Assembly: GCA_963665775.2 (NCBI GenBank)
Contig: CAXXTF010000002.1
Span: 960,001 to 1,024,000 of the forward strand
Length of the DNA: 64,000 nucleotides
From: Dehalococcoidia bacterium
GTDB taxonomy: Bacteria > Chloroflexota > Dehalococcoidia > SM23-28-2 > RBG-16-64-32
Direction of reading: 5' to 3'
In this document: one piece after another, positions 8,845 through 28,160 of the stretch
Position numbering within the stretch: the first letter of the stretch is position 1
How the letters are laid out: the number at the start of each line of letters is the position of its first letter
Notes under the pieces: generated by a model
Seen by the model: the letters and a program-made list of their open reading frames with translations, nothing else
Told to the model about the DNA's origin: nothing
Database searches by the model: none
Program-made: the position numbers and the translations under genes

Positions 8845-10127
8845 TGGGGAGCAGTTTTCGAATGGAGCTTACAGTCGACTACGTAGGCCTTGATCATCTG
8901 CGTCCCGACCCGTTCAACCCACGGCGCATGTCTGACGCCGAGTTGGATGCGCTTACCCGCAGCATCCAGGAGTTCGGGCTGGTCGATCCCATCATTGCCC
9001 GCCGTGATGACCATGCGGTCATAGGCGGCCACCAGCGCTTGCTTGCAGCCCGCCGCCTGGGGATGGAGTCAGTGCCCGTGGTGTTCCTCGATCTCTCCGC
9101 CGAGCAGGCAAAGCTCCTGAACTTGGCCCTCAACCGTATCGGCGGTGACTGGGACCAGGAGCTGCTGGCCCGCCTCCTGTCCGACCTAAACGATGTTCAA
9201 GACGTCGACCTCACCTTCTTGGGCTTTGCGGAAGACGAAATCAAGAACCTGCTCCGCACCCTCGACAGCCGCGAGAAACGGGACAGACCCGAGACGTTCG
9301 ACCTCGATGCGGCCCTGGAGGCAGCCGGAGCCGACATCGGCGTTGAGCGAGGCGAGGTCTGGCAGCTCGGCGACCATCGCATCATGTGCGGCGATGCCAC
9401 TGACGGCGGCGACGCGGAGCGCCTGGTGGGCACACGACAAGCCTCCGTGGCCTTCACAGACCCGCCATACAACGTGGGCTACGGCGATCACGGCGGCCAG
9501 CAGCGGCGCTCCCGCAAACGCCGGATCAAGAACGATACCCTCCCGCCGGAGGAGTGGGAGGCGTTCTGCCGCAGCTGGGCTGGGAACCTTTTGAGTTATG
9601 TCGATGGTGCTATCTACATCTGCATGTCCACGAAGGAGTGGCCTACCGTTTCCCGCATCCTAGATGAACTAGGTGCTCGCTGGTCGGACACCATCATCTG
9701 GGCCAAGGACCGCTTCACTCTCGGTCGGGCCGACTACCAGCGACAGTACGAGCCCGTCTGGTACGGCTGGCGGGAGGGAGGCACCCACCACTGGTGCGGC
9801 GACCGCGACCAGGGCAACGTCTGGACGATCCCCCGCCCATCGGAGTCGGAGTTGCACCCCACGATGAAGCCCTTGGAGTTGGTGGAGAGGGCCATCGAGA
9901 ACAGCAGCCGGCCCGGTGATGTCGTCTTGGACCTGTTCCTCGGTTCGGGCACCACCCTGATCGCCGCCGAGCGGACAGGAAGGGTCTGCTTTGGCCTAGA
10001 ACTGGACCCACACTATTGCCGGATAGCGATCGCCCGCTGGGAGTCCTTCACCGGCATTAAGGCGGAAAAGGCCCCAACTCCGGCGATGGCAAGCAAGCCC
10101 CCTGTTAGCAGAGGTATGGGAAGGTAA
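8844..10127 (+). CDS. ParB-N domain / N6-N4 DNA methyltransferase, copy B (intact)
   Basis: ParB N-terminus, FTDPPYNV, HPTMKP, VLDLFLGSGTT motifs. Confidence 0.9.
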   Translation: MGSSFRMELTVDYVGLDHLRPDPFNPRRMSDAELDALTRSIQEFGLVDPIIARRDDHAVIGGHQRLLAARRLGMESVPVVFLDLSAEQAKLLNLALNRIGGDWDQELLARLLSDLNDVQDVDLTFLGFAEDEIKNLLRTLDSREKRDRPETFDLDAALEAAGADIGVERGEVWQLGDHRIMCGDATDGGDAERLVGTRQASVAFTDPPYNVGYGDHGGQQRRSRKRRIKNDTLPPEEWEAFCRSWAGNLLSYVDGAIYICMSTKEWPTVSRILDELGARWSDTIIWAKDRFTLGRADYQRQYEPVWYGWREGGTHHWCGDRDQGNVWTIPRPSESELHPTMKPLELVERAIENSSRPGDVVLDLFLGSGTTLIAAERTGRVCFGLELDPHYCRIAIARWESFTGIKAEKAPTPAMASKPPVSRGMGR

Positions 10128-10134
10128 GGCATAA

Positions 10135-10518
10135 GTGCAATCGCGCCTCTGCTCGTTCCGCAAGGAGTCCGGTGAGGTATGCGGAGCTCCACCCCTTCTG
10201 GAGGGGGAGTTCTGCTTCTGGCACGAACCAGAACGTGCGCAGGAGGTCGCTGAGGCACGGCGGCTCGGCGGATTGCGCCGGCGCAAGGAGCGCACCGTCG
10301 CCAGCGCCTATGACTTCGAGGGGCTGGAAACGGTCGGCCAGATCCGGAGACTGGTCGAGGTGGCGGCCGTAGACACCCTCTCCCTGGAGAACTCCGTGGC
10401 CCGCTCGCGTTCCCTGGCCTACCTGGCGCAGGTAAGCGTGAACCTGCTGGAGAAGGGCAGCCTGGATGAACGGCTGCGAGCCCTGGAGGACACCGTCCGG
10501 AGGAAGACGAGAGGGTAG
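10135..10518 (+). CDS. Hypothetical protein with N-terminal C-x8-C...FCxxH zinc-binding motif, copy B
   Basis: [11 protein letters not shown]...FCFWHEP; conserved in copy C (23439..23816). Confidence 0.75.
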   Translation: MQSRLCSFRKESGEVCGAPPLLEGEFCFWHEPERAQEVAEARRLGGLRRRKERTVASAYDFEGLETVGQIRRLVEVAAVDTLSLENSVARSRSLAYLAQVSVNLLEKGSLDERLRALEDTVRRKTRG

Positions 10519-10524
10519 GTGATC

Positions 10525-11427
10525 ATGACGTCGCCAGAGAAGCGGCTGCAAGAGATTATTAGCGGCCTGTCTCCGGAGGAGAAGGCGCGGCTGGCCATCG
10601 AGGATGCCCTCCGCCAAGAGCCCGTACTCTCGCCGGGTGACTGCGACAGGATGGTGCTAGCGCTAACCCCCCAAGATGGCCGCCGCTACAACAGGGTAAT
10701 AGAGCGATACCAGTCGCTTCTGGCGAACCTGCGTCTTCTGTCGCAGCTTGTCGACGAAGCCCGTAGGCAGCTCCTACTCCGGGATCGCATCCTCTGGTTC
10801 GAGCGGGCGCTCATAGAGCAGGACGAAGCGATCGCGTTTGATCCCGGCGTAGCTGATGCACTTCTGGTGAAGAATCCTAACCTCAAGCCCGGTAAGCCCT
10901 TGACCCTCCAGCTGAGTCTGGGCACCGTCCGCCTCGGTGTCTGGGGCAAGAAGAAACGTACTCCCTATGACAAGACCAGCGGCGTTCAGCTCGATGAGCG
11001 GATGGTGGAGGCGCTGGAGCACCATATCGGGCGCGCTCGCCAGCTAGCCCGCGAGGTGAAGGCCATCTACAGCAATCTGGTTGAGGAGAGCAGGGCGATC
11101 GGGCTCGACTTCGCTGAAGAGTTCGCCACCGGTGTTGTCAGGCAGATTTCGGAGTATGATCGGCCTCTGCTGGAGGATCTGATCAGCACTAGGAATGATG
11201 GCGCTCCGGCCAGCGAAGCCTGGCACCGGGAGAGCGTATTCCCGGTGGATAAGGCCCGGGCGCTCGTATGGGAAGAGATCGAGGAGGACGCTGAAACCGC
11301 GAGGCGTATCCGTGAGGACCCGGCCGACTGGGTGCCGGCTTCATATGACCAAGAGATGCAGAACAGCGGCCAGTTGTTGGAGATCCTGAAGGGTCAGGCG
11401 AAAAGGGGGCTGGACGCCGGCGGGTGA
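10525..11427 (+). CDS. ~300-aa hypothetical protein, copy B (intact)
   Basis: Protein sequence conserved in copies A and C; operonic with the upstream genes. Confidence 0.8.
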   Translation: MTSPEKRLQEIISGLSPEEKARLAIEDALRQEPVLSPGDCDRMVLALTPQDGRRYNRVIERYQSLLANLRLLSQLVDEARRQLLLRDRILWFERALIEQDEAIAFDPGVADALLVKNPNLKPGKPLTLQLSLGTVRLGVWGKKKRTPYDKTSGVQLDERMVEALEHHIGRARQLAREVKAIYSNLVEESRAIGLDFAEEFATGVVRQISEYDRPLLEDLISTRNDGAPASEAWHRESVFPVDKARALVWEEIEEDAETARRIREDPADWVPASYDQEMQNSGQLLEILKGQAKRGLDAGG

Positions 11428-11733
11428 GTCGGGAGGTTGGACATGCCGGCACGCTCAGGCACCGCCCTCGGGACGAGATCGCTCAAGGTCCACCTTGCGC
11501 ACCAGCCATCACAACTACCGCCTCGGTTTCGCCCTCTGCTAGCCATGCTGATGGAGTTTGACGCGGGACGGAGTCAGGGATAGGATACAAGCCGTTGGGC
11601 GCATAGCACACTTCGGGGTCACGAAGTTGATATGGGGAATCCCGGCCATAGGTTCTCTGCCCAGACTGGCTTGGAGAGCCTTTAAGGCGGATAAGATAGC
11701 GCTGGCGGTGGTTCACAGACCATCGCCGGCATA

Positions 11734-12996
11734 ATGAAGGAGCGTGGCATGCATAACCTGAGCCTTACGAGGGCAGGCATGGCCCTGGTTGCCGTGATCG
11801 GGGTGGTGGCGGTGGCTCTGGTCCTGGCGGTATCCCCGGCCCGGGGCCAGGGCGACATCACCTATAACGTGACCATAGAGAATCTCACAACGGGGCAACC
11901 TTTCACACCGCCGGTAGTGGCGGCCCACTCTGACCAGGTCGACGTGTTCGAGCTGGGTCAGGCGGCCTCCCCTGAGCTGCAGGCGATAGCCGAGAACGGC
12001 AACAACGATCCCCTGGTGGCCCTGCTCGGCGGCTCCGCTGCCGTCTTCGACATGGCGACCGGCACGGGACCCGTACTCCCCGGCGAGTCGGCTACCATCA
12101 CCGTTAAGGCCCCAGAGGGAAGTCTGCTATCCGTAGCCGCGATGCTCATCTGCACGAACGACGGCTTTACCGGCGTGGACTCCTGGGCGTTGCCCGCCAG
12201 CGGGTCCGCCAGCGTCGACGCCGACGCCTACGACGCGGGCACCGAAACGAACACCGAGGACTTCGCTGATATCGTGCCCCCCTGCCAAGGGCTGATCGGC
12301 GTCTCATCCGACGACGATGGCACCGGCGTGACGAACCCGGCGCTGGCCGAGGGCGGGGTCATAGCGGCCCACTCCGGAATCCAGGGCGGCACCGACCTGA
12401 CCGTGGCCGATCACGGCTGGACCGATCCGGTCGCCAGGATCACCGTGAATGTGATGCCCTCGCAGGAGCCCGATCTGGAGGCGATCTACCGGCAATGGAT
12501 CGATGCCTTCAATGCGGGCGACGTGGCTGGGGCCCTGGAGCTTCTTACCGATGATGCCGTCCGGGAGCCTGCAGGCCCATGTGCGCTGAACCCCTGTGTC
12601 GGCAAGGAAGCCATCAAGGGGGTGTTCGAGCACCTCGTGGCGGAGAATCCTAGCTTCACCATCACCAGCATCGAGGTGTCCGACAACATCCTGACTGCCC
12701 GCTTGGAGGTAATTTCGCCCATCATTCTGTCAGCCGGGGTAGAGCGGATCATCAGGTTGGACACGGTGGAGTTTACCGGCGACAAGATGTCGTCTATCAG
12801 CTCGTTCCCTGACCTCACTGACGAGCAGACAGTCGTCTTCCAGAAGTCCCAGATGCCCCCCGGGCAACTTCCGCCCACCGGCGGCCCTCCCTCGGCCGGC
12901 GACGGCGGCTTCGCTTGGTCGTACATCCTCATCGCCGCCGGTGTCCTGGCCGTGCTGGGTGGCGGCGCGCTGATCACCCGTCGCCATCGAGCGTAA
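11734..12996 (+). CDS. Secreted Spondin_N + SnoaL-like protein with LPPTG sorting signal
   Basis: Signal peptide; YNVTIENLT..QPFTP, AMLICTNDGF, YDAGTETNTE (spondin); DAFNAGDVAGALELLTDDAV (SnoaL); LPPTG, TM helix and RRHRA tail. Confidence 0.8.
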   Translation: MKERGMHNLSLTRAGMALVAVIGVVAVALVLAVSPARGQGDITYNVTIENLTTGQPFTPPVVAAHSDQVDVFELGQAASPELQAIAENGNNDPLVALLGGSAAVFDMATGTGPVLPGESATITVKAPEGSLLSVAAMLICTNDGFTGVDSWALPASGSASVDADAYDAGTETNTEDFADIVPPCQGLIGVSSDDDGTGVTNPALAEGGVIAAHSGIQGGTDLTVADHGWTDPVARITVNVMPSQEPDLEAIYRQWIDAFNAGDVAGALELLTDDAVREPAGPCALNPCVGKEAIKGVFEHLVAENPSFTITSIEVSDNILTARLEVISPIILSAGVERIIRLDTVEFTGDKMSSISSFPDLTDEQTVVFQKSQMPPGQLPPTGGPPSAGDGGFAWSYILIAAGVLAVLGGGALITRRHRA

Positions 12997-13184
12997 CGCC
13001 AGTCGCGGCGGTGCAAATAGCGGGGGCGGCCCGTCTCGGGGCCGCCCCTGGCGTTATGGGGGCGGCCCGCTGCCGTTGTCAGGCCGCCGGCCACAGCCCT
13101 CGCAGCTCTCGCAGCTCTCGTACCATCTCCCGCCGCCAGATCGCCCACATGGGGCGTCCGGCAAGTGGCCGGGAGCGCGTCGAT

Positions 13185-13204
13185 GCACTATGAGTTAATA
13201 GCGT
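13185..13204 (+). repeat. Boundary palindrome site 1
   Basis: GCACTAT-gagtta-ATAGCGT, between convergent gene ends. Confidence 0.8.
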
Positions 13205-13305
13205 CTCACAAGTGCTGTTCGCATGGACTGTACGATGCGCTGAAGGATGCCGGGCCCGTTACCACCGAGGGCGTCGCCTGTTCGGCGCGACCGGTTGCCC
13301 GCGCA

Positions 13306-14856
13306 TCACTCCCCATCCCCCAACGCCAGCGACAGCAACACTGGCGGGTTGGCGAACCCAACCGGAATCACCATCCGGTCGTCCACAATCGCCAGCCAGC
13401 CGTTAATGCCTCCAGGCGCCTCGTAGGACCAGACCTCCATGCCCGTAGCGCGGTCGAACGCCAGGATCACACCGCTCAGCATCGACGTGAACACCAGATC
13501 GTTGACGATTGTCGCTCCCCCGAAGCTGTCCCCAGGAAGTGACACGTCCCACAGGATCTCCCCGCTCGCCGCATCGATCGCAACCAGTTGGCTATCGAAC
13601 GAGCCGAGCCTGACCGCGTTACCGGTGCTCGATTCCTCCGGCCCCGCGTACATGATCGGGGCGTTCACCACGGACACGAACACAACGCCGTCCGCAACAA
13701 CGATTGGCGTTACCACCCCTCCCACAGCTCCCGGCATTACGTCTAGCGCGCCTTCGAAGGTGTCGAGGTCGTCGTTCATATGCATTCCGACCGGTGTGTC
13801 CCACAGCACCGTGCCATCCGGATCGAGGCCGATGACCCGCGCGAGCTTGCCGGTGCTGATGATCACCTGTTCGCCGTCGGGCAGGTTAACGACCGCGGTC
13901 AACACCGTGTCGCGGTCGAAGATGTCGTGCGGAACCGCCTGGTGTCCCCACCTCAGTTGGCCGGTGTGGAGGTCGACGGCCAGAATTGAATCCGTCCATC
14001 GGTTGTCGCCGGGCCGGCTGGAGCCGTTCGGGAAGCCAGACGCGCCGGGGAACGGGTACGGGTTTGACGTTCCCCAGTACGAAACGCCAGCTTCGATGTC
14101 GACTGCCGGAGTATACCAGGCCCCGCCGCCGCTGTTAAGTTCCGGGTTGCCCCAGAGGTCGTCCGACTCGATGGTGTCGAACGACCACACGACCGCGCCG
14201 GTCTCCTGGTCGAGCGCGAACAGCGTGCCACGGCCGCCCGGAATAGATAGCGATGATGTCGCGGCCAGGACCAGCCCGTCCGCTACCGTTGGCTGGATGT
14301 TGATCGCCCCGCCGCTCAATAGTAGGCCCGTCGCCCACAGCTCTTCGCCCGTCGTCGCGTCGTAAGCCGCGATCTCGCTGCCTCTCTTGTTCGCGAACAC
14401 CCTGCCGGAAGCGACGGCGACGCCGCTCGGCCCGAAAACCGGGCCGTCGACTTTGACCATCCATAGCCGTTCCCCGGTCGCCAGGTCAACGGCGTGCACG
14501 TTGGTCAGGAGATCGCCGAGGTAGACGACGCCGTCGATAATGACCGGCGTGGTCGCGGCCGCGCCGGATCCCCCGCCGAAGCGCAGCTCGTATCTCCATG
14601 CCTCGGTCAGCCGGTCAACGTTGCTGGAGTCGATAGTAGAGTCGAACGTAGCGCGAGTGTTCGCGTGGTCGTAGTTCGGCAGCGGCCAGTCGAACTCGAA
14701 CTCGGTCAGCCCTATCGGCGACGGTCGAGGCGTAGGCTCGCCGTCACTTTTGCTGTCACCGTCGGAGCACGCAGCCGCTGCCAAAACCACAATCGCAATC
14801 GCTGCTCTGGGGCAAAAGGCAAAGAATCGGCGGGCATTGTTAAATTTCCGAGTCAC
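13306..14856 (-). CDS. PQQ-binding-like beta-propeller lipoprotein (PVA/quinoprotein dehydrogenase-like)
   Basis: LAAAAC lipobox; repeated AxDxxTGxxxW; GGGAWYTPAVD, WGTSNP, HDIFDRD; start uncertain. Confidence 0.8.
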   Translation of the reverse strand: MTRKFNNARRFFAFCPRAAIAIVVLAAAACSDGDSKSDGEPTPRPSPIGLTEFEFDWPLPNYDHANTRATFDSTIDSSNVDRLTEAWRYELRFGGGSGAAATTPVIIDGVVYLGDLLTNVHAVDLATGERLWMVKVDGPVFGPSGVAVASGRVFANKRGSEIAAYDATTGEELWATGLLLSGGAINIQPTVADGLVLAATSSLSIPGGRGTLFALDQETGAVVWSFDTIESDDLWGNPELNSGGGAWYTPAVDIEAGVSYWGTSNPYPFPGASGFPNGSSRPGDNRWTDSILAVDLHTGQLRWGHQAVPHDIFDRDTVLTAVVNLPDGEQVIISTGKLARVIGLDPDGTVLWDTPVGMHMNDDLDTFEGALDVMPGAVGGVVTPIVVADGVVFVSVVNAPIMYAGPEESSTGNAVRLGSFDSQLVAIDAASGEILWDVSLPGDSFGGATIVNDLVFTSMLSGVILAFDRATGMEVWSYEAPGGINGWLAIVDDRMVIPVGFANPPVLLSLALGDGE

Positions 14857-15101
14857 ACGGAACCGCCGCAGCGTTAGTGGAGCGGACTCGGAGTCACCAC
14901 CGGTGGTGGATGTGCACGGCCTCCTGCGGTGAGGGCTTAAGACTCGCATCCCCTGTACTATACGGTATTGACCCTCGGGCCCGAACTTGCGACGCGCGAT
15001 TCGGCTTCACGCGAGAGAGCGGCCGAAGTGTCCATTAGAAAACGGGCCGAAAAGTCCGAAAGTCGCTGAAGACTGTCACACTCATGGCTCACCTTCGTTC
15101 G

Positions 15102-15314
15102 TTAGTTGGTGAAGATGTCGATGACGTCCGCGACGCGCCCACCGGACTTCAGTCTGTACATTTCGGTATAACCGCAATTGCTGCAGGTTATGGTCCCGAA
15201 CTTCTTGTTCTGCAGGTTGAGGAATCTGCTGAGACCAGACCCGGTCGTGCGGATTTCCTCGGTCTCGTATTTCGTCAAACCGCACTTCGCGCAGGCGAAC
15301 TCTCGTTGTGCCAT
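15102..15314 (-). CDS. Zinc-ribbon protein (DUF2082-like)
   Basis: CAKCG...QNKKF..ITCSNCGYTEMY; GGAGG RBS before MAQREF. Confidence 0.8.
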   Translation of the reverse strand: MAQREFACAKCGLTKYETEEIRTTGSGLSRFLNLQNKKFGTITCSNCGYTEMYRLKSGGRVADVIDIFTN

Positions 15315-15682
15315 TGCCCCTGCCCTCCTCAGGTATCGGTGCGGCATATGCGCCGCGCTTGGTTATGGTCGTGTGAATCTAAATTTCCGATTTCAGCCTG
15401 ATGACGCCGAAATGGTGGCCATCCAATCGACCCGCATGCTACGCTCGGCTCCACCTAGGGTCAACCCTCTTCTCTTTGCCAATGAATGGGTGCTCTGGCC
15501 ATCTTCGGAACACACGCCTTTGGGTTCTCGCGAAACCCGTCCGAGCAAGCCGCCATCGCCGTGGTGAGGACGAAGGAGACCACCTTCCACGTATCTACTG
15601 GTGACGCGCCCGCAGGATCGGAAGCGGTGGCTACACCGGAAAGAGGGCTCACCTGGCCGATGGACTACACGGACGCAGCGGC

Positions 15683-15702
15683 ACGCTATGGCTGAATAGT
15701 GT
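15683..15702 (+). repeat. Boundary palindrome site 2
   Basis: ACGCTAT-ggctga-ATAGTGT. Confidence 0.8.
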
Positions 15703-16033
15703 GCGTTTGATTCAGACCGCGCCCCTGCCAGCGCGGAAGACCTCAGCGAGAAACAGGGGTCATTTGACTCATTTCGATCCGCGTAGACGGGGATCGAGCA
15801 CGTCCCGCAGGGATCCGTTGCGAGAGGGGCTGCGATTAGAGCCGGTCTAACGCGCTCTGCTTATTCTGCCCCTGGGCTGAGCCGTTGTCCTGGTCTGTGG
15901 CGGGAGTCTGACGGTGGGCCAACAGATGAAGTGAGCGCATCACCCGGGTCACCATCCGATTAGTATAGAGTGTGAGTGCCCGGCCGAAGAGTTCGGGTTG
16001 CTGGCGACAGACTGTAGGGAGTAAGGTGCGTTT

Positions 16034-17170
16034 ATGAAGCGGTGCCTTGCCTGCCTGGCTCTATCTATGGTCGCCATGTTTGGGCTGGCCTGCGGTCAGC
16101 AAGACGAGACCGGCCCTGCGACGATCAGTCCCAGCGCACCTCCGGCAGCCACTCCCGAGGCCACCGCGACCCCAGCGCGATCGCCGACGGAACGGCCCAC
16201 AGCCAGCGCGACGGGGCCGGCAACCGACGAATCGCCGGTCGCGAGCCCGGCCGCGCTGCGATGGAGTGAACTGGCGCCGTCGGGGCCCACACCGCCCGCT
16301 CGGCGCGACCACACTCTCGTGACGGATGGAGAAAGGGTCTTCCTCTTCGGTGGTCGCGGGCTGGCGATATTTGGCGACACGTGGGAGTTCGATACGGCAA
16401 GCGGCTCCTGGAGCGAGATCAGCTCAGCACAGGGACCGCCGGCCCGGTTCGGACACAACGCCTTCTACGACCCGGCCGGCCGGCGGATGCTGGTTTTCGG
16501 CGGGCAAGCGGGTAGCAGCTTCTTCAATGACGTCTGGGCGCTGGACGTGAACACAGGCGAGTGGACGGAGCTGGCCGGCGAGGAGGACCTGCCAGCGCCC
16601 CGCTACGGCGCGGCCGGCGCGGTGGATTCAGGAGGCCGCTTCTTGCTCTCCCATGGCTTCACCAACGGGGGCCGGTTTGACGACACGTGGCGATATACCT
16701 TGGCCGACGATTCATGGTCTGATGTATCGGCCGAGGGCGAGCGGCCAGTGGAGCGCTGCCTTATGCGTGCGGTTTGGGACTCTGGGAGCGAGCGCCTCCT
16801 CATGTTCGGCGGTCAGACCACGGGGCGACCGTTTCTGGGCGACCTATGGGAGTTCGCCGACGGAGAGTGGCGAGATCTGAGCACGACCATCGGCCCGTCA
16901 CCACGAAACTTCTACGCAATGGCGTTTGACGCCGATGCTGGACGAGTGGTGCTATACGGTGGCAACACGCAGGATGGGCCGGTAAGTGACGTCTGGTTCT
17001 TTGATTCGGCAAGCGACAGTTGGGCCCAATCGGCGGTGGACGGGGAAGGGCCGTCACCGCGATTCGGGCACGATGCCGTGTGGCTCCCCGATGGCATCAT
17101 GTTCATCTTCGGCGGTCGTGATGACTCCGGGGAGCTGAACGATATCTGGGAGCTGGAGATCGTTCTGTGA
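16034..17170 (+). CDS. Kelch-repeat lipoprotein
   Basis: GLAC lipobox, Pro/Thr linker, repeated PxxRxxH...FGG...DxW. Confidence 0.9.
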   Translation: MKRCLACLALSMVAMFGLACGQQDETGPATISPSAPPAATPEATATPARSPTERPTASATGPATDESPVASPAALRWSELAPSGPTPPARRDHTLVTDGERVFLFGGRGLAIFGDTWEFDTASGSWSEISSAQGPPARFGHNAFYDPAGRRMLVFGGQAGSSFFNDVWALDVNTGEWTELAGEEDLPAPRYGAAGAVDSGGRFLLSHGFTNGGRFDDTWRYTLADDSWSDVSAEGERPVERCLMRAVWDSGSERLLMFGGQTTGRPFLGDLWEFADGEWRDLSTTIGPSPRNFYAMAFDADAGRVVLYGGNTQDGPVSDVWFFDSASDSWAQSAVDGEGPSPRFGHDAVWLPDGIMFIFGGRDDSGELNDIWELEIVL

Positions 17171-17216
17171 GGTTGAGCCTACTACGGTACGCAAGCCCAG
17201 GGCTGTAACGCGCCTG

Positions 17217-17236
17217 ACACTAAGTGTCGATAGTGG
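17217..17236 (+). repeat. Boundary palindrome site 3
   Basis: ACACTAA-gtgtcg-ATAGTGG. Confidence 0.75.
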
Positions 17237-17371
17237 CGATTATGACAGGAGGCTCCGCGTCGAGATCATCAGGGCCTAGAGTGGCTGCGATAAGCGAATG
17301 CAGAGAGTGGAACTGCCAAGCGACACTTTTCGGCTGCACACCAGAGGTGACTCCGGATAACGCCGCATCTG

Positions 17372-17395
17372 ACCGTCGTGGCGACGGTGTATAAT
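17372..17395 (+). promoter_or_regulatory. Putative thiolase promoter with palindromic operator
   Basis: ACCGTCG-tgg-CGACGGT immediately before TATAAT (17390-17395). Confidence 0.45.
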
Positions 17396-17463
17396 CGGGC
17401 CACTGAGATCTTGGCCGCTAGTGTCGGCCAGGAACGCGGGGAAAGACTAAAAGGGAGGCTTTA

Positions 17464-18687
17464 ATGGGATCTCTCACCAGGAAAGCGGCCATCGTCGGTG
17501 CGTATGAACACCCGTTACGGGTAGCCCCTGGCTACACGGAGATGGGGATTGAGATGGAGTGCGCCAAGGCGGCGCTGGAGGACGCCGGCCTAAACTTTGA
17601 GGATGTGGACGGCTTCTTCGGGGTCACTGCACCGGTGGAGAACATGAGCGCCGCTACCTATTGCGACTATCTGAACATTCACCCCCGGATCGTCGGCGAC
17701 ACAAGTATAGGGGGCGCTACGTTCCTCCGGTTTGTGCTGGAGGCGGCGTCCTTCATCAACGCCGGCCTGATGAACGTGGGGCTCATCACCTACTCCCAGC
17801 TCCTCGTCAGCCGGGGTTGGGGTCTCTTTCGGCCTATCTCCTTCGGCGGTACCGGCGGCTCGAAGCGACCACGTAGTGCCTCGGCGATCAGGGCGGCAGC
17901 TCGCCCCGCTCCCTCGTGGACCGAGGCTTTCTCCGCCCCCTACGGTCTGGTGGGGGTAGCCGGCTACGGCCAGGTGGCGCAGCGCCACATGCACGAGTAC
18001 GGCACGACCAGCGAGCAGTTGGCGGAGATCGCCGTGGCCACCCGCTACAACGCCTCCTTCAATCCCCAGGCCAAGTACCAGAGCCCGATCACGGTGGAGG
18101 ATGTGGTAGACTCGCGGCTGATCTGCTCGCCCCTGCACCTGTTGGACTGCTGCGTTGTCACCGATGGCGCTGGTGCCGTAGTGGTGGCCAGCCCGGAGGT
18201 AGCGCGGGGCTGTAAGCAGCCGCCGGCATGGGTGTTGGGTGGGGCGATGGCGATCGGGCACCGCGACGCCGGCTATCGGGACTACGGGCGGATCGCCGCC
18301 GCCGAATCGGGCCCCCGGGCCTTTGCCGACGTTGGGCTCAGCCAAGACGACATCGACCTATGCATGCTGTACGACTCCTACACGATCACCGTCCTGACCA
18401 CGCTGGAGGGGCTGGGGTTCTGCGAGATCGGCGAGGGCGGGCCCTTCGTGGCCAGCAAGAACATGCGGTTCGACGGGGACTTTCCACTTAACACCGATGG
18501 TGGCGGGCTCTCCTCCAACCATCCGGGGGCCAGGGGGATGTTTCTGTTGATCGAGGCCACCCGGCAGTTGCGGGGCAACCAGGGGAAGAGCCAGGTGAAG
18601 GACTGCAAGATAGCCCTGTGCCACGGCACCGGTGGAACGATAGGAACCATACATAGCGGGGCCACCGTGTTCCTGGCCAAAGACTAA
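17464..18687 (+). CDS. Thiolase family protein (SCP2-thiolase-like)
   Basis: PLHLLDCCVVTDGAGAVVV, LYDSYT, PLNTDGGGLS..HPG. Confidence 0.9.
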   Translation: MGSLTRKAAIVGAYEHPLRVAPGYTEMGIEMECAKAALEDAGLNFEDVDGFFGVTAPVENMSAATYCDYLNIHPRIVGDTSIGGATFLRFVLEAASFINAGLMNVGLITYSQLLVSRGWGLFRPISFGGTGGSKRPRSASAIRAAARPAPSWTEAFSAPYGLVGVAGYGQVAQRHMHEYGTTSEQLAEIAVATRYNASFNPQAKYQSPITVEDVVDSRLICSPLHLLDCCVVTDGAGAVVVASPEVARGCKQPPAWVLGGAMAIGHRDAGYRDYGRIAAAESGPRAFADVGLSQDDIDLCMLYDSYTITVLTTLEGLGFCEIGEGGPFVASKNMRFDGDFPLNTDGGGLSSNHPGARGMFLLIEATRQLRGNQGKSQVKDCKIALCHGTGGTIGTIHSGATVFLAKD

Positions 18688-18769
18688 GTCACCCTGATTG
18701 CGCTTCAGGCACGGAAGTGCGCCAAATGACCGCCCAGGGATTAGGACGGTCGCGGCCTTGAACCGCCGA

Positions 18770-18789
18770 ACACTATGACTTCATCGTGT
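18770..18789 (+). repeat. Boundary palindrome site 4
   Basis: ACACTAT-gacttc-ATCGTGT. Confidence 0.8.
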
Positions 18790-19017
18790 ACCCTGGCAGC
18801 CATACTGGCCTTGACAACCCGTCACGAATCGGAGCTGTGTGTCTAGGCAGATAACTTTACCCAAGAGTTTGGGTTGTGGCCTATTCCGACCCTCATTGCG
18901 AGGCGCTGAAGGGAGTACTATAATCCTTTCTCACTAGCGTGGCGGCAGGGGCTTGAGGGGGAGGACCACGCCGCCCTTCAGGGTCCGTCGGATCTGGACG
19001 GCGGAAGGGAGATCGCT

Positions 19018-19755
19018 GTGATCAGAGTTCGTCGCAATAGTGAAATCTACGAAGTCGTGGGCGACTGGTATCACGCCCGCTGGCACTTTTCGTTTGAGAC
19101 GTACAACGATCCCGAGAATGAAAGCTTTGGGGCTATGCGCGTGTTCAACGACGACCGCCTGACCCCCGGTGCCATCTGGCCGCTTCACCCACACCGTGAC
19201 GTCGAAGGGCTCACCTATGTCGTGGAAGGCACGTTCGGACACGAGGACAACGTCGGAGGCTCATATGGACCACTACCGGCCGGGTCGGTGCAACGCATGA
19301 CGCTGGGCTCAGGGGCGCTCCACTCCGAGCAGAACGCGTCGAAAGACGAACCGATGCGATTCGTCCAGATCTGGATCCTCCCAGACACACCTGACCTCAA
19401 GCCAGGAGTCGAGCAGCGTGTCTTTACGCTCGAGGACCGCACCAACAGGCTCCTGAAGGTCATCGGTCCCGAAGGAGGCGACAGTGTCCGGCTTCATCAG
19501 GACGCGTCCGTCCACATCGCTTCGCTGGAGCCAGGCGTTGAGGTCACGCACGAGATTAGCACGCGCCGTGGCGTGTATGCATATCTGATCGATGGCGCGG
19601 CCCGGTTCTTCGAAGAGCACCTGCATACTGGCGACGCGGCCAAGGTGACGGACGAACCCGATCTTCGCATCCGTGCGGTTAATCGGAGCGAGCTCATCCT
19701 TGTGGATGTGCCAATGCAGTTCAAACCAGTGGGGATATGGAAGGGCCGAATCTGA
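19018..19755 (+). CDS. Pirin family protein
   Basis: HFSF..Y.DP, RVFNDD, HPHRDVE, HSE.N, QIWILP; TATAAT at 18919 upstream. Confidence 0.9.
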   Translation: MIRVRRNSEIYEVVGDWYHARWHFSFETYNDPENESFGAMRVFNDDRLTPGAIWPLHPHRDVEGLTYVVEGTFGHEDNVGGSYGPLPAGSVQRMTLGSGALHSEQNASKDEPMRFVQIWILPDTPDLKPGVEQRVFTLEDRTNRLLKVIGPEGGDSVRLHQDASVHIASLEPGVEVTHEISTRRGVYAYLIDGAARFFEEHLHTGDAAKVTDEPDLRIRAVNRSELILVDVPMQFKPVGIWKGRI

Positions 19756-19767
19756 AAGGAGCATATT

Positions 19768-20313
19768 ATGAGTGACTTGGACACCAAGGAGTCCGCCACT
19801 TTCGTTCGGGTTACGCGATTGAATCACGCCGTCCTATACGTTCGGGACCTGAACCGGTCGGTGGAATTCTACCAGCTAGCCTTCGGATTCCAAGAGATCG
19901 CCCGCGAAGCGGGGAAGATGGCCTTCCTGCGCTCCCGCGGATCCAGCAACCACCATGACCTTGGGCTTCTGGAGGTGGGACCGACGGCCGCGCAGCCGGC
20001 GCCCGGATCTACCGGACTCTACCATCTGGCCTGGGAAGTGGCCAAGATTGAGGATCTGGCCGAGGCTGCCTCCCTGCTGGCCGATCTAGGTGCGCTCACT
20101 GGCCAGAGCGATCACGGGGCTACCAAGTCGCTCTATGGGCGCGATCCCGATGGCAATGAGTTCGAGGTAATGTGGATGGTTCCCCGGGACCGATGGGGCG
20201 AATTCGATAGCCGCGCCGTGGTGGCCCCCCTCGACCTCAGACACGAACTAACTCGCTTCGGCAGTGTCCAACGGGACAACGAGCAGGCAGCGCGCCGCGC
20301 CAGCAGAGATTAG
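19768..20313 (+). CDS. VOC/glyoxalase family protein
   Basis: LNHAVLYVRDL, HHDLGL, GLYHLAW, SLYGRDPDGNEFE. Confidence 0.9.
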   Translation: MSDLDTKESATFVRVTRLNHAVLYVRDLNRSVEFYQLAFGFQEIAREAGKMAFLRSRGSSNHHDLGLLEVGPTAAQPAPGSTGLYHLAWEVAKIEDLAEAASLLADLGALTGQSDHGATKSLYGRDPDGNEFEVMWMVPRDRWGEFDSRAVVAPLDLRHELTRFGSVQRDNEQAARRASRD

Positions 20314-20366
20314 CCAAATACCCTTCGTTCATGTCACCGAGCGCCTTATCAGACGGTTGGGCGACC

Positions 20367-20386
20367 ACACTAAGTCCGCATAGCCT
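20367..20386 (+). repeat. Boundary palindrome site 5
   Basis: ACACTAA-gtccgc-ATAGCCT. Confidence 0.65.
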
Positions 20387-20459
20387 CCCCCCAGATATGT
20401 TATTCTCCACCCCAGACGTTTCCATCAATATGATGACATGAAGATTAGGGTGACATCCC

Positions 20460-21335
20460 ATGCGCTTCGGCCTCGATGAGCCCGAGTCGCACTTCTATGA
20501 ATCTCAACGGCTCCGGCTGCACTACGTGGTATGGCGTGAAAGCAGCGGCCCTCCGCTCCTGCTTATCCACGGCAGCAGGGAGCACTGCAGAAGCTGGGAT
20601 TTCGTGGCGCGGACGCTCAAGGACCGCTATACCATCTACGCTCCCGATCTTAGGGGTCATGGCGATAGTGAGTGGGTTACAGATGGCTCTTACGGAACAC
20701 CTGAATTTGTCTTGGACATAGCGACTCTAGCCGAAACGATTGAGGGTTCACTTGCCATCATGGGTTTCTCCCGGGGCGGAAACATCGCCCTGCAGTATGC
20801 CGGAGTATTTCCGGAGAGAGTGTCGAAAGTGATAGCGGTCGAGGGACTCGGACCTCCCATGGTCGCTCACAGCCCGGACGGCATGGCCCCCCCTGCACGA
20901 ATGCGGCATTGGATCGACAGCAGGCGCCACGGGGAGCGACGACGATTGCGCAGGCATGTTTCCGTAGAGGAAGCTACTCGCCGAATAATTGAGGTGAACC
21001 CGCGAGTCAGCCCCGATATCGCTCGCCATTTGGCCCTTCATGGCATCCGGAAAAACGAAGACGGCACCTACTCGTGGAAGTTTGATAACTACCTCGTCGC
21101 AGGCGCAGGCGGTCTGCACCCTGACGGGGGCGAGGAGCTTTGGGCCAACATTCGAGCGCCCGTGCTTCTCGTAACTGGAAGCGAAAGCTGGTCCGCTCAT
21201 CCGGAGTGGCAGGCAAGAGCCCGCGCACTCCCCTTTTATCGCTCGGCGGTTATCGAGGGCGCTGGTCACTGGGTCCACCACGAACAGCTGGACCGCTTCT
21301 TGGAGGTAGTGGAGGCGTTCTTAGCGGACGGCTAA
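20460..21335 (+). CDS. Alpha/beta hydrolase
   Basis: LLIHG, DLRGHGDS, GFSRGG nucleophile elbow, AGHWVHHE. Confidence 0.9.
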   Translation: MRFGLDEPESHFYESQRLRLHYVVWRESSGPPLLLIHGSREHCRSWDFVARTLKDRYTIYAPDLRGHGDSEWVTDGSYGTPEFVLDIATLAETIEGSLAIMGFSRGGNIALQYAGVFPERVSKVIAVEGLGPPMVAHSPDGMAPPARMRHWIDSRRHGERRRLRRHVSVEEATRRIIEVNPRVSPDIARHLALHGIRKNEDGTYSWKFDNYLVAGAGGLHPDGGEELWANIRAPVLLVTGSESWSAHPEWQARARALPFYRSAVIEGAGHWVHHEQLDRFLEVVEAFLADG

Positions 21336-21396
21336 GGCTCGGAGCCAGAAACCCTCCGAGGCCGCCGACGAGTCTGGTCAGCTCACCGCCGAAGCA

Positions 21397-21416
21397 ACAT
21401 TATGTGTGGTTAGTGT
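21397..21416 (+). repeat. Boundary palindrome site 6
   Basis: ACATTAT-gtgtgg-TTAGTGT, between convergent gene ends. Confidence 0.7.
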
Positions 21417-21459
21417 GCCCTTGAGAGGCACCCTTGAGCACCGGAGTCGCCCTGCAACT

Positions 21460-22865
21460 CTACGCCGCCCAATCCAGGGACAGTACCTCGGCCTGTTCGA
21501 GGACGATGATGGTGGCTTTCTCTTGCTTGTCCGGTGGGTAGCCGTATCTCCGAAGGATGCGCTTCACAATCGTCCGGAGCTTCGCCCTCACACTCTGCTT
21601 GACTGTCCAGTCGATGGTGACGTTGCGCTTCACCGCGTCGACGAGCTCGCGAGCGATGGTCCGGAGGGTTTCGTCGCCGAGCACCTGGACGGCGCTATCG
21701 TTGACGCCGAGGGCATCATAGAATGCCAGCTCCTCGTCCGATAGGCCGAGGTCTTCCCCTCTCGCCTCGGCTGCCTGCATGTCCTTTGCTAGCTTGATCA
21801 ACTCCTCGATCACCAGGGCGGTCTCTATTGCCCGGCTCTGATAGGCGCGAACTGCACGCTCCAACATCTCCCCGAAGGACCGCGCCTGGACCACGTTTTT
21901 CTTGGCGCGCACCTTGATCTCGTCCTTCAGGAGCTTCGACAGCAGGTCGACGGCAAGGTTCTTCTGGGGCAGACCGCGTACTTCGGCGAGAAATTCGTCC
22001 GAGAGGATGGAGATGTCCGGCTTCTTAAGTCCGGCAGCAGCGAAGATGTCGACCACCTTGTCGGACACTATGGCTCTGGAGATGATCTGGCGAATCGCGT
22101 TATCGAAATCCTCCTCTGCCTTGCCACTCACGGAGGACTTGGCTATCGCTGCCCGGACGGCCTGGAAGAAGGCAACATCATCCCGGATGCGGATGGCCTC
22201 TTCACGAGTAGGGGCTAGGGCGAAGGCGCGAGAAAGATCAGTGACTGCTTTCAGAAACCGCTCTTTGCCGTCCACCTGGGCCAGGATATGCTCCTGAGCT
22301 GCAGGCAGAACGGAAAGCCGCTCTAACGGAGAGCCGGTCGTGAATGCCGAATAGTCTAAGCCGTCGAACATGGCCGCCACGATCTCGTACTTCTCCAGCA
22401 TGACAGCAGCGGCCTCTTCCAGATCGACGGCCGTGGTGCCTGAGCCGCCGCTCTCCGTGTAATTGGCAATAGCGCGCCGGAGCTGGTCAGCGAGGCCAAG
22501 ATAGTCAACTACAAGCCCGCCCGGCTTATCGCGGAATACGCGGTTCACGCGAGCTATGGCTTGCATGGAGTCCGTGGCCACGCATCGGCTTGTCTACGTA
22601 CATCGTGTGAAGGCTCGGAGCGTTGAAGCCCGTGAGCCACATGTCCCGTACAATCACAGCCTTGAGGGGGTCGTTTGGGTCCCGAAACCTCTTCGCCAGC
22701 GCCTCCCGGCGCGCCTTATTCCGAATGTGGGGTTGCCATGGCAGGCGATCTGAAGCCGAGCCAGTCATGACGACCTTCAGCGTGCCTTTGCTGTCGTCGT
22801 CCGGGTGATGCCACTCCGGCTTGAGGTGGACAATAGCGTCGTACACCTCTACGCAGATCCGTCGG
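21460..22865 (-). pseudogene. hsdR: Type I restriction endonuclease subunit R, C-terminal part (DUF3387), frameshifted and 5'-truncated
   Basis: [37 protein letters not shown] / [27 protein letters not shown]...[11 protein letters not shown]; frameshift near 22570. Confidence 0.9.
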
Positions 22866-23431
22866 CTCTCCTCGATCAGATAGCCGTAGATGGCCTTCAC
22901 CTCGCCAGCCAGCCGCCGGACCCGCCCGACGAGGAGTCCCAGTACCTCCACTATTCGCTCATCGAGCTGAACGCCGCTGGTCTTGCCGATTGGGGATCGC
23001 TTCTTCTTTCCCCAGACACCGAGGCGGACGGTCCCCAGAAACGCCCGAATCTCCAACGGTTCGCCGGGCTTGAGGTTAGGATTCTTCACCAACAGGGCGT
23101 TTGCGACAGCGGGGTCGAACACGATCGCCTCCTCCATCTCGACCAGCGCCCGTTCAAACCAGAGGATGCGGTCGCGCTCAAGGAGCTGCCTCCGCGCTTC
23201 ATCGACCAGCTGAGCCAGCAAACGAAGGTTAGGTAGAAGCACCTGGTACCGGGTTATTACCGCGTGATAGCGGTCCCACTCCTGGCTGCTGAGCGCCCGA
23301 ACCATCTTAAGACGGTCGCCCGGGGAGAGCGCCGGCTCCTTGCGGACGGTGTCCTCTATGGCCAGGCGCGCCTTCTCCTCGGGAGAGAGGGCACGGATGA
23401 TCTCTTCGAGTCGTTTCTCTTTGGACGTCAT
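22866..23431 (-). pseudogene. 3'-truncated copy C of the ~300-aa hypothetical, fused in frame to the hsdR fragment
   Basis: [12 protein letters not shown]...YLIEESR matches 10525..11427, then switches to HsdR sequence. Confidence 0.85.
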
Positions 23432-23438
23432 AGGGACT

Positions 23439-23816
23439 CTAGGCGTTCCTCCGAAGCGTATCTTCCAGGGCTTCGAGCCTGCTCTCCAGCTCGCCCTTTT
23501 CCAGCAGATTTACGCTCACCTGGGCCAAGTAGGCCAGGGCGCGGGAGCGGCCGAGGGAGTTCTCCAGGGACAGAGTATCTACGGCCGCTACTTCGACCAG
23601 TCTCCGGATCTCGGTGACAGTGCCGAGCCCCTGGAAATCGTAGGCGCTGGCGACGGTCTGTTCCTTGCGCCGGCGGAGTCCGCCCAGCCGCCTGGCCTCA
23701 GCGACCTCCTGCGCACGTTCTGGTTCGTGCCAGAAGCAGAACTCCCCCTCCAGAAGGGGTGGAGCGCCGCATACCTCACCGGACTCCTTGCGGAACGAGC
23801 AAAGGCGCGATTGCAC
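23439..23816 (-). CDS. Zinc-motif hypothetical protein, copy C
   Basis: Near-identical to 10135..10518. Confidence 0.8.
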
Positions 23817-23823
23817 TTATGCC

Positions 23824-25107
23824 TTACCTTCCCTTACATATGCTAACAGGGGGCTTGCTTGCCATCGCCGGAGTTGGGGCCTTTTCCGCCTTAATGCCGG
23901 TGAAGGACTCCCAGCGGGCGATCGCTATCCGGCAATAGTGTGGGTCTAATTCCATGCCATAGCAGACCCGCCCTGTCCGCTCGGCGGCGATGAGGGTGGT
24001 GCCCGAGCCGAGGAAGAGGTCCAGCACTACATCACCCGGTCTGCTGCTGTTCTCGATGGCCCGCTCAACCAGGGCCAGCGGCTTCATCGTGGGGTGCAGC
24101 TCCGACTCCGCCGGGCGGGGGAGGGTCCAGACGTCACCCTGGTCGCGGTCGCCGCACCAGTCGTGTGTGGCTCCCTCTCGCCAGCCGTACCAGATGGGCT
24201 CGTACTGGCGCTGGTAGTCAGCCCGACCGAGGGTGAAGTGATCCTTGGCCCAGATGATGGTGTCCGACCAGTGGCCACCGAGTTCCTCCAGGACGCGGGA
24301 AACCGTAGCCCACTCCTTGGTGGACATGCAGATGTAGGTGGCACCCTCCACCGACTCCAAGAGGTTCTTCGCCCAGGCGCGACAGAACGCCTCCCATTCC
24401 TCCGGCGACAGAGCATCGTTCTTGATCCGGCGCTTGCGGGTGCCCCGCTGCTGGCCGCCGTGATCGCCGTAGCTAACGTTGTATGGCGGATCCGTGAAGG
24501 CCAAGGAGGCTTGCCCTGTGCCCACCAGGCGGCCAACGTCGCCCTGGTCGGTAGCATCCCCGCACGTGATGCGATGGTCGCCGAGCCGCCAGACCTCGCC
24601 TCGCTCAACGCCGGGGTCGGCCTGGGCCGCCTCCAGGGCAGCGTCGAGGTCAAACGTCTCGGGCCGATCCCGCTTTTCACGGACGTTGAGGGAGCGAAGC
24701 AAGTTCTTGATCTCGTCCTCCTCGAAGCCGGTGAGAGTTATGTCGACCTCGGGGGCCTCGCCCAGCTCGGAAAGGAGGCGGGCCAGCAACTCATTGTCCC
24801 AGTCCCCGGAGATGCGGTTGAGGGCCAAGTTCAAGAGCTTCGCCTGCTCCACAGTGAGTTCCACGAAGATGACTGGAACGGTGGCGTAGCCGAGGCGGCG
24901 GGCTGCCAGGAGACGTTGATGGCCGCCGATGACACATTGGTCTTCATGGCGAGCGATGATGGGGTCTACCATGCCAAATTGCTGGATGCTGCGGGTCAGC
25001 GACTCCAATTCGGCATCGGAGATGCGCCTGGGGTTGAAGGGGTCGGGCCGGAGATCGCCGATGGGGACGTGCTGAATCTCGATTTTCGTCTTCGCTTCTG
25101 CAACCAC
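23824..25107 (-). CDS. ParB-N / DNA methyltransferase, copy C (intact)
   Basis: FTDPPYNV, HPTMKP, DLFLGSGTT; GTG start with GGAGGG RBS. Confidence 0.9.
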   Translation of the reverse strand: MVAEAKTKIEIQHVPIGDLRPDPFNPRRISDAELESLTRSIQQFGMVDPIIARHEDQCVIGGHQRLLAARRLGYATVPVIFVELTVEQAKLLNLALNRISGDWDNELLARLLSELGEAPEVDITLTGFEEDEIKNLLRSLNVREKRDRPETFDLDAALEAAQADPGVERGEVWRLGDHRITCGDATDQGDVGRLVGTGQASLAFTDPPYNVSYGDHGGQQRGTRKRRIKNDALSPEEWEAFCRAWAKNLLESVEGATYICMSTKEWATVSRVLEELGGHWSDTIIWAKDHFTLGRADYQRQYEPIWYGWREGATHDWCGDRDQGDVWTLPRPAESELHPTMKPLALVERAIENSSRPGDVVLDLFLGSGTTLIAAERTGRVCYGMELDPHYCRIAIARWESFTGIKAEKAPTPAMASKPPVSICKGR

Positions 25108-25211
25108 GATGGCCCTCCAAACCAAACGAAAAAGCCAGCCCAGAAGACCTGGGCTGGCCTCAATACTCCACACAGGGTCTTAGCCTGTGAAACCTTCTTT
25201 AATTATCTTAA

Positions 25212-25442: not shown

Positions 25443-25461
25443 TCCCCTAGACCGACGCCCA

Positions 25462-28016: not shown

Positions 28017-28160
28017 CCGACACTCCCCTACTTGAGCCCTTGCGCGATGAGTGCTCGGAATGCGCCCAATTGTTAGCTAATGCAGGTTTGAGGGTTATCA
28101 CACGCAAACAAGCACGCCCTAAAAGGCCCAGGCTCATCTACCAGGTGTACAATCGACGGC

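Follow-up and report, generated by a model that had tools for sequence, protein, structure and literature searches.

Positions 960001–1024000 of contig C2 in the genome of a Dehalococcoidia bacterium (GCA_963665775.2, here G000) were analysed as a single stretch of 64,000 nucleotides, referred to as the window; coordinates given without a contig name are window positions. The genome comprises 2.35 Mb on two contigs (C1 and C2) with 63% G+C. Our subject is an array of short palindromic sites that alternate with small gene modules between positions 10010 and 23941 of the window, together with the related arrays that this genome contains at other places. The arrays lie in the chromosome, on a contig of 1.49 Mb. 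The recurring element is a 20-bp imperfect palindrome, ACACTAW-N6-WTMGYGT, with a 7-6-7 layout of two inverted arms around a hexamer that we call the spacer. A logo of 53 genomic copies contains information solely in the two 7-bp arms, the six central bases and the surroundings being free.

The first site of the array (10010–10029, plus strand, spacer TGCCGG, 22.3 bits in the scan described below) lies within the 3' end of a ParB_N-DNA methylase gene (8844–10127), and the same spacer type opens a sister array at C2 258994. Module 0 (10135–12996, plus strand; family assignments throughout are from Pfam) consists of two open reading frames (ORFs) of 127 and 302 aa without Pfam family, and a SnoaL/Spondin_N protein (11734–12996). 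Paralogues of the first two ORFs, families F3 and F4, occupy the same slot of the sister array. The next site, GCACTAT-GAGTTA-ATAGCGT (13185–13204, plus strand, 20.2 bits), is situated between two convergent gene ends and precedes module 1 (13306–15315, minus strand), which encodes a PQQ-type β-propeller protein (13306–14949; PF01011, PF13360) and a 77-aa Cys-rich ORF (15082–15315). A site at 15683–15702 reads ACACTAT-TCAGCC-ATAGCGT on the minus strand (spacer GGCTGA on the plus strand; 24.3 bits). It is followed by module 2, a Kelch-repeat protein (16034–17170, plus strand) whose N-terminus, read by eye, ends in a lipobox-like LACG. The site ACACTAA-GTGTCG-ATAGTGG (17217–17236, plus strand, 23.3 bits) separates the Kelch gene from module 3, a thiolase-like protein (Thiolase_C_1; 17464–18687, plus strand), and ACACTAT-GACTTC-ATCGTGT (18770–18789, plus strand, 23.5 bits) separates the latter from module 4 (19018–20313, plus strand), which contains pirin (19018–19755) and VOC/glyoxalase (19768–20313) genes. 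A site of the GTCTGC type, ACACTAA-GTCCGC-ATAGCCT (20367–20386, plus strand), and the alpha/beta hydrolase of module 5 (20460–21335, plus strand) lead to a site at 21397–21416 that reads ACACTAA-CCACAC-ATAATGT on the minus strand (spacer GTGTGG on the plus strand; 23.6 bits). The last segment (21460–23816, minus strand) contains fragments resembling a type I restriction R subunit (T1RH-like_C, T1R_D3-like) and a 125-aa ORF, and is an inverted copy of the first two ORFs of module 0; 22862–23710 matches C2 257209–258057 at 97.8%. The array ends with a second TGCCGG site (23922–23941, minus strand), inverted relative to the first and located within the 3' end of a second ParB_N-methylase gene (23824–25173, minus strand).

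A preliminary description of this region, made from the sequence without database searches, had recognised six sites between 13185 and 21416, each separating one self-contained unit of about 1.0–2.5 kb. All six are present as 20-bp palindromes, and the segments between them measure 2.48, 1.51, 1.53, 1.58 and 1.01 kb. The genes it had named are borne out by Pfam for the PQQ, Kelch, thiolase-like, pirin, VOC and alpha/beta hydrolase proteins; the 77-aa ORF, which it had called a zinc ribbon, gave no Pfam match at E≤1e-5 and is left without a family. Promoter-like sequences had been proposed for the thiolase and pirin segments. The two TATAAT sequences are indeed there (17390–17395 and 18919–18924), the second within a full promoter-like match upstream of pirin (TTGCGA-17-TATAAT, 18896–18924), the first outside any such match. 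Between 12900 and 21600 there are six promoter-like matches, compared with 1.5 ± 1.4 in shuffled sequences, these being consensus matches only. Codon usage, suggested as a check, is mildly heterogeneous (G+C at third codon positions of 0.65–0.82 per segment, and 0.45 in the small ORF) and decides nothing. Nor is the composition profile decisive, as it revealed no sharp steps at the sites.

We scanned the genome with a weight matrix of both arms, excluding the spacer, that was built from this genome's own sites. At a threshold of 14 bits there were 131 matches in the 2.35-Mb genome and 10 in a shuffled copy; at 18 bits the numbers were 77 and one. Merging the matches gave 76 sites, most of which fall into five islands (C1 767–814 kb; C2 218–260, 312–354, 918–1025 and 1430–1441 kb). 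The strict pattern gave 25 matches in this genome, and its reversed form, used as a control, gave none. The sites thus exceed chance and are real, defined elements. Among the 53 sites scoring at least 17 bits, 41 lie outside ORFs, while a rough map assigns approximately 85% of the genome to ORFs. The 41 intergenic sites have convergent (6), divergent (8) and tandem (27) gene contexts; as all three occur, the sites keep no fixed relation to promoters or terminators.

Other descriptions of the repeat were less successful. An alternative register, CACTAWG-N6-ATAG with two mismatches, has the wrong spacing and occurred at chance level (11 found, 11.6 expected). A generic repeat search of 11000–24000 did not return the site family, but only the 15684/23923 pair and a 99-nt inverted repeat. 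The hairpins that single strands of the sites could form are weak (-5.5 to -8.8 kcal/mol). One terminator-like match coincides with the 15683 site, but the region contains only two such matches against 5.0 expected, and we rejected a hairpin or terminator reading. Rfam gave no match in 9000–26000 at E≤1, although it is uncertain whether Rfam includes an attC model.

Homology breaks and spacer order

Two segments of the array have close copies elsewhere on C2. The hydrolase segment (20368–21415, site to site) matches C2 247544–246503 with 96.7% identity over 1048 nt, and the pirin-VOC segment (18814–20383) matches C2 355531–353961 with 98.2% identity over 1571 nt, ending inside the 20367 site; the neighbours differ in both cases. 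An all-against-all comparison of the 53 sites, each taken with 400 bp per side so that the site occupies positions 401–420, yielded about 14 pairs that have only one flank in common, with alignments ending at 387–401 or 417–433. Homology spans the site only for TGCCGG copies, and then only in some of them; these copies are embedded in the 3' ends of paralogous ParB_N-methylase genes.

The arms follow the flanks. In all five informative pairs (782059/218802, 353958/980367, 247526/980367, 778312/194822 and 228933/253678), whose shared flanks are 89–99.8% identical, the arm beside the shared flank is identical and the far arm is different. The site at 20367 combines two others as a hybrid: its left arm agrees with that of the site next to the second pirin-VOC copy, and its right arm with that of the site next to the second hydrolase copy. 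One-sided homology is also seen at the 17217 site, of which only the right flank is homologous to that of the C1 313251 site; at the 60397 site, where the left flank agrees at 96% with the left flanks at C2 218802 and C1 782059 and homology stops at the site; and at the 18770 site, which has its left but not its right flank in common with a degenerate GACTTC site below the scan threshold (C2 450441–450460). The last 92 bp of the Kelch gene recur, together with the left arm and spacer of the 17217 site, at C1 683618–683721 (93% identity), the break falling exactly after the spacer. Given the one-sided homology and the segregation of arms with flanks, the crossovers fall within the 20-bp site, in or next to the spacer. 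The C1 locus itself contains a degenerate site (C1:683709–683728, below the scan threshold) that retains the left arm and GTGTCG but little of the right arm.

The preliminary description had taken the regular alternation as support for a cassette array, in which homology would end at the sites and neighbours would differ; this is how the copies behave. It had also proposed looking for an intact, collinear block in relatives, and none of 40 relatives has the 8.6-kb block in that form: what they contain are single genes at no more than 77% identity, scattered.

The spacers fall into approximately 12 discrete hexamer types, each with several copies: GAGTTA, GTGTCG, GTCTGC, GGCTGA, TGCCGG, CTTGAC, TGCGCC, CAGGTC, GTGTGG, GACTTC, GTTCCC and GACGTC. 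Arrays that end at a recombinase gene (see below) present them in a fixed order and orientation towards that gene: TGCCGG, GAGTTA, GGCTGA, (GTTCCC), GTGTCG, GACTTC, GTCTGC, GTGTGG, CAGGTC, TGCGCC, CTTGAC. The array in the window covers TGCCGG through GTGTGG. The array at C2 236–262 kb runs TGCCGG, GAGTTA, GACTTC, GTCTGC, GTGTGG, CAGGTC, TGCGCC, CTTGAC, and the one at C1 763–790 kb runs GTGTCG, GTCTGC, GTGTGG, CAGGTC, TGCGCC, CTTGAC. The same pair of spacer types encloses pirin and VOC in the window and a family III CoA-transferase in the C2 array. A single spacer type (GTGTCG and GTCTGC are examples) adjoins several unrelated left and several unrelated right flanks, and the spacer is therefore a property of the site class and not of one cassette.

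Public relatives were retrieved through one protein of this genome, and all are titled as Dehalococcoidia, Chloroflexota or 'Chloroflexia' metagenome-assembled genomes (MAGs). Of 41 related genomes, 17 contain the strict pattern, for which the backwards control gave no match. By a hand count, 17 of the 28 sites outside this genome carry one of its spacer types. The spacer order is kept in arrays beside orthologous recombinases in G015, G029, G031 (three times) and G033, four genomes from two other families, with one-base variants of the spacers such as GTCGGC and GTGGGG. ORF families are almost never common to these arrays, neither among the four genomes nor with the present one. The cargo differs in kind as well. 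Here it is mostly metabolic (hydrolases, CoA-transferase, thiolase, pirin, VOC, tyrosinase, M1 peptidase); near the recombinase in other genomes it is of the restriction-modification or defence type (AIPR, Z1, GmrSD, TIR, type I restriction-modification, a Cap17-like domain, HerA). Many sites in the relatives are no more than a few hundred bases away from a contig end, which would be expected of assemblies that fork at the sites.

A site of the GTCTGC type was found on 21 metagenome contigs. Two further pairs among these have a left flank in common at 95% identity up to the site and unmatched right flanks, one right flank in each pair being only 94 or 128 nt long. A repeat of approximately 64 nt, present in the right flanks of contigs L138, L144 and L149 and in the left flanks of L140, L144, L145 and L152, directly adjoins some GTCTGC-type sites and in other metagenome contigs recurs a few hundred bases away. 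Six public sequencing runs from two studies contain the stretch, as short contigs only, and four of them were compared over 9000–26000. Their contigs break or fork at 17159/17229, 20341/20378 and 21399/21415. All four compared runs (two studies) also contain contigs in which 12463 is connected to 20367 across opposite strands, with a depth of roughly one copy; the assembly lacks this joint. A site starts with base 20367, and at 12463 the homology of the SnoaL/Spondin gene to two paralogues ends.

Xer-like recombinases near the sites

The window encodes no tyrosine recombinase. Genome-wide there are 22 matches to the tyrosine-recombinase catalytic domain, among them a 312-aa Xer-like protein, F1, encoded by two genes whose products are 91% identical (C2:240060–240998 and C1:766482–767420, both outside the window). 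Each F1 ORF is preceded at 39 bp by a CTTGAC site that terminates a sister array. The array stretches out from this site, and F1 is transcribed away from the array. F1 contains the catalytic domain PF00589 (69 bits) and the N-terminal SAM-like domain PF02899. The catalytic residues are present in all eight aligned members (TGRRR arginine box, KGGK hairpin, HxLRH and Tyr291), with one histidine replaced by glutamine in one member. By these residues and the SAM-like domain, F1 is a simple, Xer-type tyrosine recombinase. The nearest solved structures are XerD, XerA and XerH, but F1 scores below the cut-offs of all Xer equivalog and IntI models and is therefore not XerC, XerD or XerA proper. The host XerC/XerD pair is encoded at C1:734585–735538 and C2:1067207–1068427.

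Orthologues of F1 with 75–78% identity occur in seven of the 41 related genomes, in two families. Scanning one genome per species gave 141 confirmed F1 loci, of which 80 were kept; all are from Chloroflexota MAGs, often several per genome. At these 80 loci we counted 89 sites in 619 kb upstream of F1 and 27 in 671 kb downstream, a 3.6-fold difference in density. A site of at least 12 bits was present within 150 bp upstream of F1 at 28 of 79 loci, compared with 20 of 1500 control windows. Exact spacer types of this genome were found at 32 of 97 upstream sites, without exception in one orientation, and at none of the 27 downstream matches. The ordered spacer pairs at F1 loci agree with the fixed order in 11 of 11 cases. 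In G031, the 60 kb downstream of three F1 genes contain no site.

A second Xer-like family, F2, has three copies in this genome (C2:1438444–1439457, C2:341890–343059 and C2:359497–360537) with 91–95% mutual identity and approximately 27% identity to F1. One F2 copy lies 96 bp from a GAGTTA site, the only one of the three genes here that adjoins a site.

Further sites and repeats in the window

Downstream of the array there are at least six more sites in the window. A GAGTTA site at 30196–30215 (plus strand, 24.3 bits) is in direct orientation to the one at 13185, and another at 42579–42598 (minus strand, 24.3 bits) is inverted. Between them lie a weaker site of the GTCTGC type (35599–35618, minus strand, 17.4 bits), with one-sided homology to C1 778312 and C2 194822, and a GGCTGA site (40140–40159, minus strand, 20.2 bits). 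The remaining two have the spacers GGGAAC, an inverted GTTCCC type (54746–54765, plus strand, 20.8 bits), and GTGTCG (60397–60416, plus strand, 20.6 bits).

The array is bracketed by two inverted units, 8844–11427 and 22526–25173, that are 82–90% identical and consist of the ParB_N-DNA methylase gene and two ORFs of unknown family. More copies of this unit are found at C2 229–235 kb and 256–260 kb. Beside the bracket copies in the window lie a 309-aa serine recombinase ORF, a sigma-70-like gene and a gene for an 868-aa protein with a weak primase zinc-finger match; together they resemble a mobile-element backbone. A 62-nt repeat (15011–15072), located in the gap that separates the PQQ gene from the small Cys-rich ORF, has copies of 89–95% identity at C1 788084, C1 810063 and C2 330463 and matches of 84–90% identity in four other genera, although the sequence around it is not conserved. 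This repeat has no Rfam match, and shuffled sequence is predicted to fold at least as well.

Five tandem ORFs of 120–319 aa at 26095–30034 belong to one family without Pfam match, which has many copies on both contigs (for example C1 282896, 658996 and 844926; C2 326705 and 329369). Several genes further downstream appear split or truncated: a DUF3179 gene in two ORFs (54871–56001), an acyl-CoA dehydrogenase without its C-terminal domain (58043–58930) and an ABC ATPase in two overlapping ORFs (60512–61478). These may be pseudogenes or reflect assembly indels.

Proposed spacer-matched exchange and its alternatives

From the comparisons above, we think it likely that the sites are crossover sites of the core type, used for the exchange of spacer-matched modules and most probably served by F1. 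The simple tyrosine recombinases that have been studied (Cre, Flp, lambda Int, Xer) place one monomer on each arm, cleave at positions 6–8 bp apart and require the spacers of both partners to match. By analogy, the 20-bp element would be a double-stranded core site in which two 7-bp inverted arms surround a 6-bp crossover spacer, and F1 would be the most likely dedicated enzyme. The array at 10010–23941 would then be a copy without a recombinase, relying like a cluster of attC sites lacking an integron integrase (CALIN) on the two F1 genes elsewhere. Exchange would join sites that have a spacer in common but belong to different arrays, the partner array being in the same genome or on incoming DNA. 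One crossover would swap everything distal to it and two would refill a single slot, the scaffold of sites being kept in either case; the modules would bring their own expression signals. Matching of like with like would explain why the spacers are discrete, why they are kept while arms and flanks reassort, and why their order is preserved. Pairs of the same type in direct orientation (13185/30196 in the window; GTTCCC twice in G031) could support the excision and integration of circles, and inverted pairs (10010/23941 and 30196/42579) could give rise to inversions.

A stronger version is possible, though we put it somewhat short of even: an address-coded exchange, in which a dedicated recombinase serves at least ten ordered sites with mutually incompatible spacers, a slot can be refilled only from the same slot, and the arrangement is standard across Dehalococcoidia families, with defence and metabolic modules circulating through it.

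A number of observations weigh against spacer-matched exchange by F1. The arms of the studied Xer and Cre sites are 11–13 bp long, longer than the 7 bp here. The TGCCGG sites lie in coding sequence, and it is there that homology runs through some copies. The pirin-VOC duplication has its left border 25 bp past the 18770 site, at a place where no site is present in the other copy; the thiolase homologies are at the gene level only and begin approximately 150 bp inside the segment. Homologues of pirin and VOC occur at 11 loci in relatives with no site within about 1.5 kb, apart from two weak matches, and as these homologues are not flanked by sites, movement of these particular modules between genomes is unsupported. 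The breaks and loose ends of the public-run contigs (17229, 20368, 21415) mirror the genome's own paralogous copies, and no recombination event was seen among them; because the loose ends match these paralogues, the forks do not independently indicate activity. The counts overstate independence, since the loci and genomes that entered them are related or paralogous and the matrix derives from this genome. With no tyrosine recombinase in the window, F1 would have to act in trans on the array there. F1 or F2 was seen in only nine of the 17 genomes that bear the pattern, most of the others being incomplete MAGs. Finally, the F2 copies also lie in site-rich islands, and F2 homologues adjoin sites in the relatives G017 and G023, for which reason the enzyme is not settled.

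The mosaics could also have arisen by general homologous recombination of the RecA or phage type, with the 20-bp sites serving as short patches of homology and no dedicated enzyme, in the way that boundary sequences are thought to act in mosaic phages. Sites of the same type are identical over up to 20 bp, and order-preserving mosaics are the outcome that homologous exchange between aligned arrays would have. We nevertheless consider this explanation unlikely: a 20-bp patch is very short for RecA, the conserved 7-6-7 arms with free but discrete centres point to recognition by a protein, and neither the site just upstream of F1 nor the one-sided distribution at the 80 loci would have a reason.

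Slightly less probable still is site-specific exchange by an enzyme other than F1, whether F2, the host XerC/XerD pair, or F1 and F2 together. F2 has the island and near-site positions already described, and in G017 and G023, where its homologues lie beside sites, F1 was not found. The dif modules of Acinetobacter are reported to use the host Xer pair (PMC13141974, PMC6449649). Set against this are the two F2 genes here that adjoin no site, the presence in G019 of five F2-like genes and no strict-pattern site, the near-symmetry of the arms, which fits a single protein species, and the linkage of F1 to sites across 80 loci.

We regard it as very unlikely that the sites are regulatory operators, centromere-like ParB sites or palindromes of the repetitive extragenic palindromic (REP) kind, at which homology ends merely because they are intergenic. 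The sites are indeed palindromic, intergenic and clustered, ParB_N-methylase genes flank the array, and the genome has one marginal match to a Y1 transposase-like domain (PF01797; C2:1417671, 20.8 bits, E 6e-4), outside the site islands. However, the sites also occur between convergent gene ends, besides tandem and divergent contexts, homology stops at the edge of the site in about 14 pairs with the arms segregating with the flanks, and sites are linked to one side of a recombinase gene. Regulation does not account for a dozen ordered hexamers that are kept across families while the genes change. REP elements and their associated tyrosine transposases (RAYTs) comprise a Y1 (HUH) transposase and clusters of REPs with a conserved 5' tetranucleotide, and one-sided homology and ordered centres are not among REP features.

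A sedentary integron or CALIN, whose attC sites are recombined as folded single strands by an integron integrase, deserves almost no credence: one- or two-gene units between palindromic sites recall it, as does the tyrosine recombinase gene that each sister array has at one end, but the best match to the integron integrase model TIGR02249 in the genome reaches 78.8 bits over model positions 239–308 against a cut-off of 265, F1 scores 52 bits over positions 12–178 only, the 20-bp site shows no conservation outside itself, lacks the GTTRRRY/RYYYAAC cores and folds into weak hairpins, genes lie on both strands with promoter-like sites inside segments, and a fixed spacer order is unlike the outcome of insertion at attI. 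The integron frame implied by the preliminary description is thus not sustained, there being no IntI, no attC and genes in both orientations.

In effect, the arrays form a cassette platform resembling integrons or dif modules; by membership they are neither. With integrons and CALINs they share small modules between recombination sites, a tyrosine recombinase at one end with a somewhat deviant site adjoining, and recombinase-less arrays elsewhere in the genome. They differ from integrons in having no IntI and 20-bp cores of the double-strand type, where attC hairpins measure 57–141 bp, in the two gene orientations and in the promoter-like sequences of some segments, integron cassettes being for the most part co-oriented, without promoters and transcribed from a shared one; the discrete, ordered centres suggest like-with-like exchange rather than insertion at attI. 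The pdif sites of dif modules are 28 bp long, with two 11-bp arms and a 6-bp centre, alternate in orientation and depend on host XerC/XerD. The plasmid dif modules of Acinetobacter are reported to be bounded by pdif sites acted on by XerC/XerD (PMC13141974, PMC6449649), and resemble the present arrays in that short Xer-type sites with a 6-bp centre bound accessory modules shuffled between replicons. The arrays described here differ in their 7-bp arms, chromosomal location, co-oriented sites, linked dedicated recombinase and ordered centres.

Engineered cassette exchange offers another parallel. Heterospecific lox or FRT sites with unlike spacers do not cross-react, and a segment is replaced by double exchange with a donor carrying the same pair. 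Identical arms with differing spacers are common to both, the incompatibility being presumed for the natural sites; the laboratory design uses two sites, whereas the natural series would have at least ten. The tandem ssrA islands of Dehalococcoides occur in the same bacterial class, with accessory islands between directly oriented repeats of the ssrA 3' end, but the sites described here are two-armed with differing centres. In shufflons of the Rci type, inverted sites lie within the alternative 3' ends of one gene and recombination is limited to inversion; the present sites are mostly co-oriented, intergenic and placed between unrelated complete genes. A literature search returned papers on integrons, dif modules and tycheposons; the portions of these that were available contained no account of 20-bp ordered sites with a Xer-like recombinase in Chloroflexota, which is not proof of absence.

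Soils, sediments and groundwater harbour abundant Dehalococcoidia and related Chloroflexota, which have large sets of paralogous catabolic enzymes and variable islands, yet their turnover of accessory genes is poorly understood. If correct, spacer-matched exchange would explain why the same scaffold carries different cargo, why MAG assemblies break at such places, and how metabolic and anti-phage genes are reshuffled, and it would widen the known designs of gene-cassette platforms beyond integrons. Were the address-coded version to hold, the arrays would join integrons and dif modules as a third such platform and would parallel, in nature, the engineered exchange between heterospecific sites. 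Spacer-matched exchange could also provide genome engineering with a set of short recombination sites that are orthogonal by nature and served by one small recombinase.

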